Shown here: positions 18,171 to 24,242 of the stretch, in pieces
Numbering within the stretch: position 1 is the stretch's first letter
Layout: each line of letters starts with the position of its first letter
Assembly: GCA_025839675.1 (NCBI GenBank)
Contig: CP104013.1
Coordinates: 2,430,001 to 2,462,000, forward strand
Direction: 5' to 3'
DNA from: Candidatus Lokiarchaeum ossiferum
GTDB lineage: Archaea; Asgardarchaeota; Lokiarchaeia; Sigyniarchaeales; Promethearchaeaceae
Length of the DNA: 32,000 nt
The notes under the pieces: generated by a model
The model's database searches: none
What the model saw: only the letters and a program-made list of their open reading frames with translations
Told to the model about the DNA's origin: nothing
Translations under genes and position numbers: made by a program

Positions 18171-18372
18171 ATATAAATTTGAAATAAAATTGATGTTTTC
18201 TCGAATTTTTCCAAACTATCGGTAAAATAGAATTAGTTGAGCCTTTTTTAGACAACTATTGAGAATATTAGATTTGATTCTGAGAGAATTTAAAGAATTA
18301 TTAATCGTTAGTAGCAGAAAAATTTTCTTTAAATGATCATTTATATAAATAATCAAACACCTATTTATATGT

Positions 18373-19644
18373 ATGATGTTTAGAAATTTCATTAAGGCTG
18401 CTCCCGATTATCTATCCCTTAAATTGAGTGATTTTATAGGCCATTTCATAAATTTAAAAACAACAGATACTTTTAAAAATTGGATTCAATATGCTGATTA
18501 TTCAAAATTGATGGGGTATTCATGTAGATCCCTTTTTGAAACATGCATGAGGTTTTTAGAGAAAAAAGACCTCGTAGTCGCAACCACACCCCTTCATCAT
18601 ACCTCATTTCGAAATATTATAGAATTACATGTTCAACCCGAAAATCTTCACATCATACCGTTTAATGATACTTATAATGGATTAGGAACTCTTCCCAAAT
18701 TGGACCGGTGCGATATAATCGTAGTAACACATCTCTTTGGACAAGACTTAAATCTCACTTCCTTATTGGAATTCAAGAAAAAACATAATTGCATCATCAT
18801 AGAAGACCGAGTACAAGGGGGAACCTTGGATTTAAAATTCAGTCATGATGTAGTAGATATTGCGCTCTATTCCATGGCAATGGATAAACGACCTATTGCT
18901 TTGGGAGGAGGAATCATGCACATTAGAAATAATTTTCGGGAAATCATCAAATATGTGCGGGAATCAGTCATGGATCTCCCCCTCGAACAGGTTGCAAGTA
19001 GAAAGAAAGAATTACTAAAAAAAATCCCCACATATCTTCTCTATAACAGCAGACCTTTTCTTTATTTATTTATTAATATCGTAAACTTACTCAATCGGTT
19101 CAATAATGACATTAACTTGTTAAATATCACTCAATCTTATCGCAAATCAAATCCAGGATTCAGCCATAACGATTTTATGTTGCAACCATCCAATTCTCTT
19201 TTGAAATCGATGCATGAAAATCTTGGTAATTACTCCTTTATGGAAGAAAATTACGCAAAAAAATCGTTATACTTTATGAACTGTCTACCCGCAGAAGTCC
19301 GAAAGTTCTTTTTCCCTTGGTTCAAAGGTAATGCCAGTTTAACACCCTATAATACCATCCAAGTTCCAGAATCTTCAATTAAACATTTTCTTCAATACTT
19401 TAATGATCACAATATGTCTGTAATTACCAATCCTACATACAAACTTTTTAACTTTCCAAATAAGTTTAGCCAAAAGGATGAACAATTCAATAATGGAATT
19501 ATATATCTCCCTTCAGTAGCGAATATGAAGAAATTTGAAATTCGATATTTAGCGAGTTATATCGTTAATTTTTATATGACATATATTTCCGCCCCTTCAA
19601 AAAGTAAAACCGAAAAAATAACTCCAATTCAAGTGATTTCGTGA
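18373..19644 (+). CDS. DegT/DnrJ/EryC1-like fold-type-I PLP-dependent enzyme (divergent)
   Basis: Three blocks align by eye to sugar aminotransferases such as ArnB. DLVVATTPLHHTSFRNII matches DEVITPSMTWVST. DIIVVTHLFGQDLNLTSLLEFKKKHNCIIIEDRVQGG matches KAIIPVHYAG...IPVIEDAAHA. DIALYSMAMDKRPIALGGGIM matches AIFSFHAIKNITCAEGGIV. Lys172 falls at the Schiff-base position. Confidence 0.6.
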   Translation: MMFRNFIKAAPDYLSLKLSDFIGHFINLKTTDTFKNWIQYADYSKLMGYSCRSLFETCMRFLEKKDLVVATTPLHHTSFRNIIELHVQPENLHIIPFNDTYNGLGTLPKLDRCDIIVVTHLFGQDLNLTSLLEFKKKHNCIIIEDRVQGGTLDLKFSHDVVDIALYSMAMDKRPIALGGGIMHIRNNFREIIKYVRESVMDLPLEQVASRKKELLKKIPTYLLYNSRPFLYLFINIVNLLNRFNNDINLLNITQSYRKSNPGFSHNDFMLQPSNSLLKSMHENLGNYSFMEENYAKKSLYFMNCLPAEVRKFFFPWFKGNASLTPYNTIQVPESSIKHFLQYFNDHNMSVITNPTYKLFNFPNKFSQKDEQFNNGIIYLPSVANMKKFEIRYLASYIVNFYMTYISAPSKSKTEKITPIQVIS

Positions 19645-19690
19645 ATTTTACTTAACCCTTCACACTTTTAAAATACCGATAAAACAGTAA

Positions 19691-20581
19691 ATGATAACTA
19701 TGGATCACCTTGAACGACTTGAAAATAAAAGTATACACATAATGCGAGAAGCCTATAATCAATTTAAAAATCTGGGAATGCTCTGGTCAATTGGTAAAGA
19801 TTCGACAGTTCTTCTCTGGTTAGCCCGAAAGGCCTTCTTTGGACATGTCCCTTTCCCGCTTGTACACATTGATACAGGTTATAAAATTCCTGAAATGATC
19901 GAGCATCGGGATCGATTAGCAAAAGAGTGGAATCTCGATATGGTCTATGGACAAAACCGAACAGCATTAAATGAAAAGCAAACCTTTCCAGATGGGACAA
20001 CAACCCATTTAGATTGTTGTAAACTCCTAAAAACCCAAGCATTAGAAAATACTTTGAATGGAAAATGGCCCAGATACCGCATGAACCATAAGAAATCTCA
20101 ATATGAAATCGATTCAAACAATGAAGCCTTCGAGGGAATCATTGTAGGAGTGAGAGCCGATGAAGAAGGCAGCCGCTCCAAAGAACGGTATTTCTCCCCA
20201 CGGAATACACACAATGACTGGATCATTGAAGATCAACCTCCAGAATTTTGGAACCAATATAAAACAGACTTCCACCCGGGAACTCATATCAGAGTCCATC
20301 CTCTTTTAGATTGGACCGAGTTAGACATATGGGAATATATAGAACGAGAGAATATACCAATGGTTTCCCTTTATTTTGACAAGGGGGAAGGGAAAAGATA
20401 TCGATCCTTGGGTTGTTGGCCATGTACTAAGCCTGTAGATTCCCACGCAGCCAACGTTCATCAAATTATTGCTGAATTGAAAACAGGTAAGTTTGTAAAT
20501 ATTGCTGAAAGGGACGGTCGGGCCCAAGATAAAGAAGATGGCGGCGGTTTGGAAGTTTTACGCCGCGATGGGTATATGTAA
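19691..20581 (+). CDS. cysD: Sulfate adenylyltransferase subunit 2
   Basis: [16 protein letters not shown] is present, with a PP-loop-type [12 protein letters not shown], and C-terminal [11 protein letters not shown] followed by [10 protein letters not shown]. This is typical of CysD. Confidence 0.9.
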
Positions 20582-20594
20582 CTGAGGAATAGAA

Positions 20595-22445
20595 ATGACA
20601 CAACCATATATTGACACTAATTACACCGAAAATACAAAGGATCTAGAAGAAGAAATAAGTGATCGCATGAATATTGCGATTGTAGGTCATGTAGATCATG
20701 GAAAAAGTACAATCATTGGTAGATTGCTCGCAGATACCAAATCATTACCTCAAGGAAAGCTAGAACAAATAAAGGAGCGATGTAAAAGGAATTCTAAGCC
20801 GTTTGAATATTCATTCTTACTGGATGCTTTAAAGGACGAACAAGCGCAAGGTATCACAATAGATACAGCACGGGTTTTTTTCAATAGTGAAAAAAGAAAA
20901 TACATCATTTTAGACACCCCTGGACATATAGAATTCCTTCGAAATGTCGTAACGGGTGCATCTCGCGCCGAAGCAGCATTGCTAATTATAGATGCCCATG
21001 AAGGAATTCAAGAAAACTCCAAACGTTATTGCTACATGATTTCTCTCTTAGGAATTAAAAAGATTTCCATAGTTGTTAACAAAATGGATCTGATTGATTA
21101 CTCTGAAACAAAGTTCCTTAATATTGTTCACGAATATCAACAATTCTTAGATAAAATTCAAGTCACTCCTTTAAGTTTCATACCAGTAAGTGGAAAATTG
21201 GGTGACAATGTTGCATCTAATTCTGAGAATATTCCATGGTACAAAGGACCTTCCATCCTATCCCAATTAGATATGTTTATAGGGGAAAAAATTCCTGAAG
21301 ATCAAAATTTCCGAATGTCTGTGCAAGATGTGTACAAATTTACAGAAAATAATGATAAACGAAGAATTGTTGCAGGAACTATCGAATCAGGAGCTATTTC
21401 AGTAGGTGAGGAGGTAGTGTTTCTTCCCTCAGGAAAAACGAGTAAAATTCAAAGTATTGAGGGATTCAACACTTCTACAAAAAAAACTATAACAGCCGGT
21501 TATGCTACAGGTTTTACGATTGCCGATCATCTTTATATTAAAAGAGGTCAAATTATGGCTCGATCGGATCAAAATCAACCCCATGTAGCAAATAATATTG
21601 TTGTTGATCTATTTTGGTTAGGAAAATTACCGCTCCAGTATGAAAAAGAATACTTTATAAAGATAGGTGCTCAAAAAGTGCCTTTTACCCTCCAAAAAAT
21701 TCGTAGAGTTATAGATGCAACCAATTTGAATTTTGAAGAAAAGCCAGAAATTCATAGAAATGAAGTTGCAGAGTGTGAATTTTTGTTAAAAGAACCGATC
21801 GCATTTGATTTAACTCATGAATTGTTATTAACCAGTCGTTTCGTTATCGTGGATGATTTCGAAATAGCAGGTGGAGGGATAATCTCCGACATCATTAACA
21901 ATTCAACAGAAAAAACCAAAAAAACGAATGAAAATCTAAGTTTTGCATGGGAACGAAGTAGGATTGGTATGGATGATCGTGCAGAGCGATATAATCAAAA
22001 ATCAAGCTTGATATTAATAACTGGAGGCAAAGAAAGCCGAAAGAAGGAGATAGCCAAAGCACTTGAAAAAGAACTGTTTTCTCAAGGCAAATTTGTTTAT
22101 CATATGGGAATAGGACATTTGCTTTATGGATTAGATGAAAGTGTTAGATTGAATACAATTAATAATACTGACAACCACATCAGCAGACTTGCGGAAATTG
22201 CCAATATTATGTTAGATTCTGGCTGTATTTTAATTGTTACTGCAAGATCATTGAACCAATCAGACCTAGAACTCTTAAGAAAAACACTAATTGTGCCCGA
22301 AAAATTGATTAGTGTGTGGATAGGTAATGTGGTTTTTACTGATATCAAGGTAGATTACCATCTATTTAACTTCCAGCGGATTAAACGGGGAGTAAAAAGG
22401 TTAAAACAAATCTTGCAAGACAAAGGAATTATTTTCAAAATATAA
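20595..22445 (+). CDS. cysN: Sulfate adenylyltransferase subunit 1 (GTPase) fused to a degenerate APS-kinase-like C-terminal domain
   Basis: G1 is [10 protein letters not shown]3 is DTPGH and G4 is NKMD. GAGGA lies 6 nt upstream of the ATG, 13 nt after the cysD stop. The C-terminal roughly 170 aa is homologous to CysC, but the Walker A and DGD motifs are not conserved (see finding). Confidence 0.9.
21942..22445 (+). other. APS-kinase-like domain with a non-canonical P-loop
   Basis: [22 protein letters not shown] aligns with Cys[34 protein letters not shown] aligns with [18 protein letters not shown] aligns with LTAFISP. Overall collinearity with E. coli CysC is clear, while the catalytic motifs are substituted. 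Confidence 0.6.
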
Positions 22446-22448
22446 GTC

Positions 22449-22458
22449 TTTTTTTTTT
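22449..22458 (+). terminator. T(10) tract between cysN and cysH (possible terminator or attenuation point)
   Basis: The T run starts 4 nt after the cysN stop and ends 11 nt before the cysH ATG. Confidence 0.3.
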
Positions 22459-22469
22459 GATAAAATAGG

Positions 22470-23285
22470 ATGCAACCAAATATGTCAACAGAAAAAACTC
22501 AATACGCTCTAAATTTATTAGAATCAGCATTTATTAATACAAAACCACGAGGTGTAGGATGTTCTTTTGGGAAAGATAGTGTTACCGCTGTTCATTTAGC
22601 ACGACGAATCGATCCAAATATTCCTGTATTTTCGATTATGACAATTTTCAAACCTAAAGAGACTTTTGAATATTTAGTGGAAATCAACCGTCTTCTGAAT
22701 TTAGATGTCTTGGTATATATGGTAGCCGAACGGGTTCCACAAATATTAATTGATAATGGAATAAAAGTGGAATTATTATCTCCAGATAATTTTCGAGAAG
22801 CTCAAGGAACTCATGAGAATTTCTTACATACTGAAGATGTTGACCGATGTTGTCATCTCCTCAAAGTGGTTCCGATTCAAAAAGCAGTGGCGAATTATGA
22901 CGTATTGATCGATGGACTTCGAAGTTCAGAAGGAATCACTCGTCAAAATTTGCAAGAAATTGAAATAACTGGAGACCTAACAAAAATTCATCCAATTCTC
23001 CACTTTACAGAAGAAGATATATTTGAATATCTCAAAAAAAATGACATCCCTATTCATCCATGGTATTTGAAAACGTTTCCAGATGGGAAACGTTATCGAT
23101 CTTTAGGTTGTGCCCCTTGTACACGACCAATTTTTGATCATGAATCAGAACGCGATGGGCGGTGGCAAGGAAGTAAAAAAGAAGGCGGTGAATGCGGAAT
23201 ACACACAAATCAAATTAAACCTTCAAAACAGAATATCCCCCTTCAAAAAACTTTTGTGATGGAAAAACAGGATTATAATTGCTAG
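22470..23285 (+). CDS. cysH: Phosphoadenosine/adenosine phosphosulfate reductase family, Fe-S (APS reductase-type) variant
   Basis: It has a PP-loop-like CSFGKDSVTAVHL and the C-terminal catalytic motif ECGIH. It also carries the CC (DRCCHL) plus CxxC (LGCAPCT) cysteines that ligate the [4Fe-4S] cluster in assimilatory APS reductases. These are absent from E. coli-type PAPS reductase. Confidence 0.8.
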   Translation: MQPNMSTEKTQYALNLLESAFINTKPRGVGCSFGKDSVTAVHLARRIDPNIPVFSIMTIFKPKETFEYLVEINRLLNLDVLVYMVAERVPQILIDNGIKVELLSPDNFREAQGTHENFLHTEDVDRCCHLLKVVPIQKAVANYDVLIDGLRSSEGITRQNLQEIEITGDLTKIHPILHFTEEDIFEYLKKNDIPIHPWYLKTFPDGKRYRSLGCAPCTRPIFDHESERDGRWQGSKKEGGECGIHTNQIKPSKQNIPLQKTFVMEKQDYNC

Positions 23286-23363
23286 TTTCTTTATAACCCC
23301 TTTATGTCATCATGATTGATCAATTTTTCCAAATGTTGAATTTAATGAGAAAAGCTAAGTAAA

Positions 23364-24242
23364 ATGATGCTATCGCTTGCAGAATTGTCAACCATGACAT
23401 TTATGGGTATTCTATTAATGATTTTTTTAGGATTTTTCATAGGTATTATTACTTCAATAAGTGGAATTGGCGGAGGGGCCATAATTATGCCGTTTCTTCT
23501 TTTAATTTTAAATATGGATCATAATTATGCAAAAGGAACAAGTTTATTTTTAATCCTACTTAGTTCCGGAATCGCGACATTATATAACATAAAACAAAAA
23601 AAGATATCAATTTCCATTATCCTATTCACATCATTCTTTGGAATTTTAGGCAGTATTTCTTGTTTTATCTTCCAAAAATACTTGATTATTGAAGAACGGA
23701 TTTTTTTTATTTTATTTGGACTTTTTGAAGTAATTATGGCATTCCGAATGATTTTCAAAGCCAAATTAGAGTTAAAAAACATTTCCAAAAGTAGTATTAC
23801 TCTAGATCCATCAATTGACAAGTCCATTTCACCATCCAATTCCATCTTAAAGATTGAACATAACTCATTCTGGACAAATAAGAGAGTTTTTCGCGCATCG
23901 CCATTCTTTTTTGTAACGGGATTTCTCACCACGTTTTTTGGAATAGGAGGAGGTCCAATAACAACCCCTGTATTTCATGAAATACTACATATGCCAATTA
24001 CAAGTGCGATTGCTTCTTCAAGTGCAATGATTTTCGTCAATTCGATAATTAATGTCATCTATTATGGAATTCAGGGAGAAATTCAATGGGTATTTGGAGT
24101 AATAATTGGGATAGGAATGATGGTAGGCTCTTATACAGGGGTTTTCCTATCAAATCATATTTCAAAATCTATGGTCTATTTTCTAATTGGGATCTTGCTA
24201 GGAATTCTGGGCACGGTTATGATCATTGGTTTCTTTGTTTAA
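23364..24242 (+). CDS. TauE/SafE-family anion (sulfite/sulfonate) exporter-like membrane protein
   Basis: Two homologous halves each begin with the G-I-G-G-G motif (SISGIGGGAIIMPFL and TFFGIGGGPITTPVF). They are separated by a hydrophilic loop, with about 8 TM helices in total. Confidence 0.75.
   Translation: MMLSLAELSTMTFMGILLMIFLGFFIGIITSISGIGGGAIIMPFLLLILNMDHNYAKGTSLFLILLSSGIATLYNIKQKKISISIILFTSFFGILGSISCFIFQKYLIIEERIFFILFGLFEVIMAFRMIFKAKLELKNISKSSITLDPSIDKSISPSNSILKIEHNSFWTNKRVFRASPFFFVTGFLTTFFGIGGGPITTPVFHEILHMPITSAIASSSAMIFVNSIINVIYYGIQGEIQWVFGVIIGIGMMVGSYTGVFLSNHISKSMVYFLIGILLGILGTVMIIGFFV

Follow-up and report, generated by a model that had tools for sequence, protein, structure and literature searches.

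Why would an archaeon turn sulfate into sulfite if its genome holds no recognisable sulfite reductase to take the product further? The question is raised by the window, i.e. the whole 32,000-nucleotide stretch analysed here (G000:C1:2430001-2462000) of the closed 6,035,313-bp genome of Candidatus Lokiarchaeum ossiferum (G000), in which five open reading frames (ORFs) stand in a row on the plus strand, separated by intergenic gaps of 46, 13, 24 and 78 nt. They encode a DegT-like pyridoxal phosphate (PLP) enzyme, CysD, CysN, CysH and a permease of the TSUP family. An initial annotation, made from the DNA letters, had called these five ORFs, their gaps and a run of ten T residues (T10) between them, and all of these were confirmed. 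On balance, we favour a reading in which the row would consist of juxtaposed modules, the permease would import sulfate, a line independent of 3′-phosphoadenosine 5′-phosphosulfate (PAPS) would convert it to sulfite, and this sulfite would end up in a sulfonate. The features concerned are the following (window positions).

18341 to 18372, plus strand: AT-rich stretch with two TATA-like elements (TTTATATAAA and TTTATAT), read from the sequence.
18373 to 19644, plus strand: DegT-like fold-type-I PLP enzyme of 423 aa, assigned by homology, invariant residues and fold.
19691 to 20581, plus strand: cysD, sulfate adenylyltransferase small subunit, assigned by curated profile, with orthologues of 79-81% identity in genomes G089 and G094.
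20595 to 22445, plus strand: cysN, sulfate adenylyltransferase GTPase subunit with a C-terminal pseudo-kinase domain (about 21942 to 22445) resembling adenosine 5′-phosphosulfate (APS) kinase.
22449 to 22458, plus strand: T10 run, four bases 3′ of the cysN stop.
22470 to 23285, plus strand: cysH, assimilatory-type APS reductase with [4Fe-4S] cysteines and ECGIH, assigned by profile and motifs.
23364 to 24242, plus strand: TSUP (TauE/SafE, PF01925) permease, assigned by Pfam match.

The enzymes for the route from sulfate to sulfite are ordinary. CysD and CysN form an adjacent pair, both above their curated cut-offs (354.6 bits against 195 on NF003587, and 344.3 bits against 336.1 on TIGR02034, respectively), and the 13-nt gap between their genes contains GAGG. 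CysH belongs to the PAPS_reduct family (159.3 bits against a cut-off of 154 on NF002537) and carries the motifs DRCCHL, GCAPCT and ECGIH, which comprise the [4Fe-4S] cysteines C127-C128, C214 and C217 and the catalytic ECGIH, and which are conserved in six orthologues. Judging by this combination of a PAPS_reduct domain, a CC...CxxC signature and a C-terminal ECG[LI]H, the protein is predicted to be an Fe-S-type APS reductase, as the initial annotation had it. Its closest homologues are mostly archaeal, with 50-55% identity.

The dead kinase domain that had been noted on CysN also proved correct. The APS_kinase match of the CysN tail is weak (32 bits), and the protein falls short of a bifunctional CysN/CysC with a functional APS kinase domain (437 bits against a cut-off of 715 on NF004035). 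TGGKESRKK stands where a Walker A motif is expected and MGIGHLLYG where LDGDN is expected; for comparison, the true kinase of the relative G094 reads GLSGSGKST and LDGDNIRHG. The degenerate pattern (GEEDVGKKP, LGIGNLLYGVDAD) is conserved in CysN homologues of Halanaerobium, Halobacteroides and Clostridium. The pseudo-kinase tail has motifs of its own, ITGxxxxGKK and LGIGNxLYGxDAD, kept across Firmicutes and Lokiarchaeia (homologues P0280-P0378), and this conservation suggests that the tail has not simply decayed but has kept a function in regulation or nucleotide binding. A genome-wide PF01583 search found no working APS kinase, since apart from the degenerate tail of CysN it matched, above cut-off, only a KTI12-like protein (at 5.92 Mb); this second match was considered as a PAPS locus and rejected, as the KTI12-like protein adjoins an ordinary inositol monophosphatase. 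Because the genome is without a working APS kinase, PAPS would never be made. CysD and CysN would thus turn sulfate into APS, spending ATP and GTP, and the Fe-S CysH would reduce APS directly to sulfite. The cluster resembles bacterial PAPS-independent assimilatory sulfate reduction in having CysD and CysN together with a CysH that bears the CC..CxxC cysteines and ECGIH, and differs from it in its pseudo-kinase tail and in that the genome has no siroheme sulfite reductase.

This PAPS-independent sulfate-to-sulfite module appears to be of mixed ancestry. Among 201 sampled Asgard genomes CysD is a rarity, present in 4. The CysN of the window is 98% identical to a protein that bears the name Candidatus Lokiarchaeum ossiferum, and its nearest non-Asgard relatives are Firmicutes (Halanaerobiales and Clostridia), with 54-58% identity over the full length, which gives the cysDN pair the look of an acquisition from Firmicutes-like bacteria. 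CysH was found in 6 of 161 Lokiarchaeia, five of which also have an ATP sulfurylase, either Sat (G165, G229 and G313) or CysDN (G000 and G094); none was found in the sixth, G215, an assembly of 79% completeness. Two genomes from a sister genus in the same family, G089 and G094, have cysD-cysN within clusters of glycan genes, with neither cysH nor TSUP at its side. The G089 pair (L049:5313-11964) adjoins rmlB, rmlD, rmlA and a glycosyltransferase gene, and the G094 pair (L050:1081-7402) lies near genes for a mannose-1-phosphate guanylyltransferase (ManC), a phosphomannomutase (PMM) and a 469-aa CysQ-APS kinase fusion. The gene content of the G094 locus suggests PAPS-dependent sulfation of surface glycans in that organism.

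The sulfite made by this module meets no siroheme sulfite reductase. Neither NIR_SIR (PF01077) nor NIR_SIR_ferr (PF03460) had a match in the closed 6.04-Mb genome, and the same searches found both domains in 11 of 14 control genomes; positive controls also worked in the searches for ComA and cysteate synthase described below. Without a NIR_SIR domain anywhere in the genome, complete assimilatory reduction to sulfide by Sir, Fsr, alSir, AsrC or DsrAB is not encoded. The absence that the initial annotation had noted near the cluster, and for which it proposed a search for sir, dsr and Fsr, therefore holds genome-wide. All six CysH-bearing Lokiarchaeia, i.e. this genome and five others, are likewise without NIR_SIR.

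A possible destination of the sulfite is indicated by the cysH genes of relatives. In the Lokiarchaeia G229 (L107:5029-7107) and G313 (L108:3713-5837), which belong to another family, cysH is directly followed by comA and comB. Both cysH orthologues have 43-47% identity and the same CC..CxxC..ECGIH motifs, and both genomes have Sat and no NIR_SIR. Moreover, a Methanosarcinales metagenome-assembled genome (MAG; JAODGL010000070.1, L053:8983-13821) carries cysH (50% identity), HcyBio (COG1900), comA, comB and a thiamine pyrophosphate (TPP) enzyme of the sulfopyruvate-decarboxylase type as five genes in one row, and judging from its neighbours this reductase would seem dedicated to supplying sulfite for coenzyme M. 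The comA-comB linkage together with the missing NIR_SIR in the relatives suggests that this CysH clade typically supplies sulfite for sulfonate synthesis. The idea of such a supply was raised for anaerobic methanotrophic archaea (ANME) by Yu et al. 2018 (PMC6286981), and our literature search found no paper mentioning both phosphosulfolactate synthase and Asgard archaea. In the ComA/ComB route to sulfolactate and coenzyme M, as here, an APS/PAPS reductase would supply sulfite for the formation of a carbon-sulfur bond and not of sulfide. The ComA-E proteins of methanogens and the yit genes of Bacillus subtilis are examples of this route being fed by sulfate activation. By analogy with these relatives, a carbon-sulfur (sulfonate) product is tentatively our first choice for the fate of the sulfite, which would not be reduced by a siroheme enzyme; reduction by an unrecognised enzyme ranks second and export third.

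Unlike its comA-bearing relatives, however, this genome has neither ComA (no match to PF02679, phosphosulfolactate synthase) nor cysteate synthase (no match to TIGR03844, and CysK scores 250 against a cut-off of 600 on the CapA model NF053679). A 449-aa ThrC-like paralogue at G000:C1:5326607-5327956 (L122) scores 271 against 421 bits on the best threonine-synthase model; it lies below every threonine-synthase cut-off, and 88 of 161 Lokiarchaeia have a counterpart of it besides a normal ThrC. The paralogue was considered as a hidden cysteate synthase and rejected, because it is spread over Lokiarchaeia irrespective of CysH and is missing from the CysH-bearing G165. A tblastn search for SqdB-type enzymes yielded 19 paralogues of the short-chain dehydrogenase/reductase (SDR) type, all of at most 375 aa except for one 662-aa read-through. 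Nine of the 19 carry the names of other enzymes. Of the untyped rest, the two of greatest length came closest to tyvelose epimerase and GalE types rather than to SQD1. The organosulfonate fate proposed in the initial annotation thus gains from the operonic cysH-comA-comB of relatives and loses from no acceptor having been found in this genome, and the search for sulfonate pathways that it advised gave neither ComA nor cysteate synthase, and no SQD1-like enzyme among the 19 SDR paralogues. Its suggestion, which it had itself called weak, that a serA-like/serC-like pair (serA and a class-V aminotransferase gene) downstream would supply phosphoserine for cysteate formation had to be dropped, as there is no cysteate synthase and nothing ties the pair to the cluster.

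A gap of the same kind has been described before. For Nerearchaeum marumarumayae, of a sister genus within the Promethearchaeaceae, a preprint (10.1101/2025.07.22.663070) reports sulfite from assimilatory sulfate reduction and no identifiable sulfite reductase, and proposes export of the sulfite via TauE to a sulfate-reducing partner as well as a hypothetical Hdr-based reduction. The puzzle is thus already in the literature for this family. The two organisms share the assimilatory-type reduction of sulfate to sulfite, the missing sulfite reductase and TauE transporters (gene orders were not compared), and the interpretations differ in that TauE is read there as an exporter alongside Hdr reduction, whereas we favour import and a sulfonate fate.

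Of these two published ideas, the Hdr-based one (10.1101/2025.07.22.663070) would amount to true assimilation, in which a non-siroheme enzyme, for example an Hdr/[NiFe]-hydrogenase system with persulfide carriers, reduces sulfite to sulfide and CysK makes cysteine from it. The genome does encode CysK (448 bits against a cut-off of 351), besides a normal ThrC, and hdrCBA-mvhD lies 3.4 kb upstream of the cluster in the window. We nevertheless regard this route as unlikely, since we know of no enzyme with such an activity in archaea of this kind, and since Lokiarchaeum grows in a sulfidic co-culture, where a costly reduction of sulfate is not needed.

The other idea, the hand-off of sulfite, turns on the permease. 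The TSUP protein is a clear member of its family (145.5 bits against a cut-off of 32.6 on PF01925) and one of four TSUP paralogues in the genome; an Atlas search with it returned generic TauE clusters only. No SulP, DASS or CysT carrier above cut-off was found in the genome in a search that did not extend to PiT-type carriers, and the adjacent TSUP permease is therefore the best candidate for a sulfate importer. TSUP members including CysZ of Corynebacterium glutamicum have been described as sulfate importers (PMC5840216). Like that CysZ, the present protein is a PF01925 permease beside sulfate-reduction genes and a candidate for sole sulfate importer, a likeness drawn without direct sequence comparison; the characterised TauE and SafE members, in contrast, are sulfite exporters. 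As a counterpart of the TSUP-type CysZ, the permease would bring sulfate in. In the Asgard genome G064, moreover, a divergent TSUP gene lies 3′ of cysD-cysN and CysH was not detected, so that no sulfite would be made there for TSUP to export. Import, which the initial annotation had mentioned as an alternative, thereby gained support from the absent carriers and from G064, and we consider it, with moderate confidence, the better reading.

Export through the TauE-like permease, with a sulfate-reducing partner respiring the sulfite as in the Nerearchaeum model, seems to us slightly less likely still than true assimilation. In its favour, the permease gene follows cysH directly (78-nt gap), the TauE family is named after sulfite exporters, and the hypothesis was published for a sister genus of the same genotype (10.1101/2025.07.22.663070). 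On the other hand, it would cost a low-energy fermenter at least one ATP and one GTP per sulfite and would leave the genome without a recognised sulfate importer. It also sits poorly with the cysD-cysN-TSUP arrangement of G064 and with the comA-linked relatives, which would use sulfite inside the cell.

Whether the five genes form one unit was addressed through their transcription signals and through the contexts of the DegT-like gene elsewhere. The genome contains 785 T-runs of at least 10 nt, 141 of which lie within 40 nt 3′ of a same-strand stop (ORFs of at least 200 aa); as this zone makes up 1% of each strand, T-runs are enriched there about 18-fold. Given this strong enrichment, the T10 between cysDN and cysH is probably an archaeal oligo-T terminator or attenuator, and cysH and the TSUP gene are then probably transcribed separately or via read-through. 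This oligo-T termination signal is strong in the genome and could help to delimit transcription units. TATA-like elements lie upstream of the DegT-like gene, of cysD and of cysH, although in an AT-rich genome they can be read as promoters by inference only; those just 5′ of the DegT-like start would possibly provide this gene with a promoter of its own. The row consequently looks like three juxtaposed modules (the DegT-like gene; cysD-cysN; cysH with TSUP) and not like a five-gene operon.

The initial annotation had instead let the DegT-like gene open the unit, its enzyme possibly consuming sulfite or a product thereof to give an amino-sulfonate or a sulfo-sugar. The enzyme itself had been recognised correctly at the superfamily level, including its K172. 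It fails the Pfam DegT model PF01041 (11.5 bits against a gathering score of 19.8, E = 0.17), and its family profile finds sugar aminotransferases, QdtB among them, at 3e-13 and places Lys172 on their Schiff-base lysine. Across 39 homologues, H120, G123, D145, S167, K172 and Y326 never vary. An AlphaFold model with a predicted local distance difference test (pLDDT) score of 93.4 gave PseC and WecE as best Foldseek matches (E about 1e-11 to 1e-12), so that sequence and model together predict a sugar-aminotransferase fold of type I in which Schiff-base Lys and PLP-binding Asp are both kept. With the DegT/DnrJ/EryC1/StrS aminotransferases (QdtB, PseC, WecE) it shares the fold, the PLP-binding Asp145, Ser167, Lys172 and collinear motifs; it differs from them in lying below the Pfam threshold, in having 9-14% identity to the solved members, and in forming a family of its own, with 258 cluster representatives, no Pfam model and named members mostly from Asgard archaea. 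No conserved sugar-gene context surrounds the gene.

In 14 other Asgard genome contexts, the DegT-like gene is never beside cysD, cysN, cysH or the TSUP gene of the window, with a weak match to TSUP at a distance of about 5 kb in one Heimdall-type locus, and none of 30 metagenome contexts has these genes near it either (0 of 44 in all). Such a lack of synteny is what the initial annotation itself had named as refuting its proposal. In one Heimdall-type family the DegT-like gene occurs in 12 of 21 genomes, CysH in 1 and CysD in none; G094 has the DegT-like gene, cysDN and cysH each on a contig of its own, and in G165 the DegT-like gene and cysH are likewise on separate contigs. Together with the TATA-like element upstream of cysD, this indicates that the DegT-like gene is probably not part of the sulfate unit and encodes a separate Asgard-type PLP enzyme.

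A functional link of this gene to the sulfate genes, and with it the model of the initial annotation, is accordingly improbable in our view, despite a number of observations that speak for it. The DegT-like gene has the same direction as cysD at a distance of 46 nt. It adjoins cysH in G215, where the convergent orientation rules out co-transcription, and in a Promethearchaeota MAG, where the two proteins have the consecutive accessions MHA1521740/41 on one contig; in three more metagenome assemblies the two genes share a contig. The metagenome linkages are drawn from equal contig sizes (24158, 6204, 5476 and 98489 nt) and from these consecutive accessions. Furthermore, the DegT-like gene is carried by all four CysH-bearing Promethearchaeaceae against 2 of 10 without CysH, which counts for little as the genomes are kin and thus non-independent samples of one family. 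Finally, cysH of G094 has a PLP enzyme as divergent neighbour too, though one of the alpha-oxoamine synthase type instead of the DegT-like one. This neighbour (L105:6617-7756) has serine palmitoyltransferase (2.6e-42), KBL and cysteate-C-fatty acyltransferase (3e-27) as its best solved relatives, and by these matches may be a lead to sphingoid or sulfonolipid-type chemistry, or an ordinary KBL.

From these neighbourhoods one could imagine that the ComA-less, CysH-bearing Promethearchaeaceae fix APS-derived sulfite by an undescribed PLP-enzyme route, giving an amino-sulfonate, sulfo-sugar or sulfonolipid of the envelope. We rate this as a long shot, for which the DegT-like family beside cysH (Lokiarchaeum, G215) or the alpha-oxoamine synthase beside cysH (G094) may be the candidates. 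The other cysH neighbours in G165 and G215 (an orotidine monophosphate (OMP)-decarboxylase-family gene, an aldo-keto reductase gene and a radical SAM gene) were rejected as pathway genes, since their orthologues in the present genome lie elsewhere, away from the cluster.

Lastly, the module might activate and reduce another oxyanion such as selenate. ATP sulfurylases accept selenate, and Lokiarchaeia encode selenoproteins; the resulting selenite would need no dedicated reductase, and a sulfite reductase would be dispensable, but we give this idea next to no weight, as nothing specific supports it, a trace element would hardly warrant such an expense, and the comA linkage of relatives points to sulfite itself.

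Several points weigh against the reading that we favour. This genome has yielded no sulfite acceptor, so that the sulfonate fate draws on relatives only, and the four CysH-bearing Promethearchaeaceae are all without ComA. The SqdB search covered the SDR paralogues found by tblastn, two of which were compared with solved structures. The good CysK implies a use of sulfide by this genome, for which true assimilation could be an advantage. The transport direction of the TSUP permease is taken from context, not being readable from sequence, and the putative transfer of cysDN is argued from sequence identities. To these is added the occasional linkage of the DegT-like gene to cysH described above.

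Some further observations concern the surroundings of the cluster and the DegT-like family. At window positions 24198-24242, the TSUP gene and a convergent gene for a 921-aa hybrid histidine kinase share 45 nt at their 3′ ends, and the first 10 kb of the window contain no sulfur-related genes. Homologues of the DegT-like protein with 41-48% identity were found on marine metagenome contigs of 21-24% GC (L077, L079-L090, L092, L093, L095 and L096), such contigs making up about 17 of the 30 metagenome contexts. The metagenome scan used the narrower alignment A2, the wide alignment A1 being too diverse. The nearest Atlas cluster is labelled mostly Nucleocytoviricota, and a BFVD fold search with the DegT-like protein returned generic DegT-like viral matches only (8-13% identity). 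The low-GC contigs may be giant-virus DNA, and the family may be common to Asgard archaea and giant viruses.

A sulfate-to-sulfite line without a sulfite reductase is a real puzzle, if only a moderately new one; since the genes themselves are ordinary and the Nerearchaeum preprint exists, we see the finding as useful rather than surprising. The same CysH clade being wired to comA-comB in other Lokiarchaeia provides a testable default and argues against automatically reading TauE as a sulfite exporter. Few Asgard archaea are in culture, Lokiarchaeum being one of them, and the exchange between such cells and sulfate reducers is what hydrogen-sulfur syntrophy models for the origin of eukaryotes hinge on. 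Its costly sulfate-to-sulfite line needs explaining, be it by a sulfonate, by a hand-off to a partner or by a novel reductase, and each of these outcomes would be informative.

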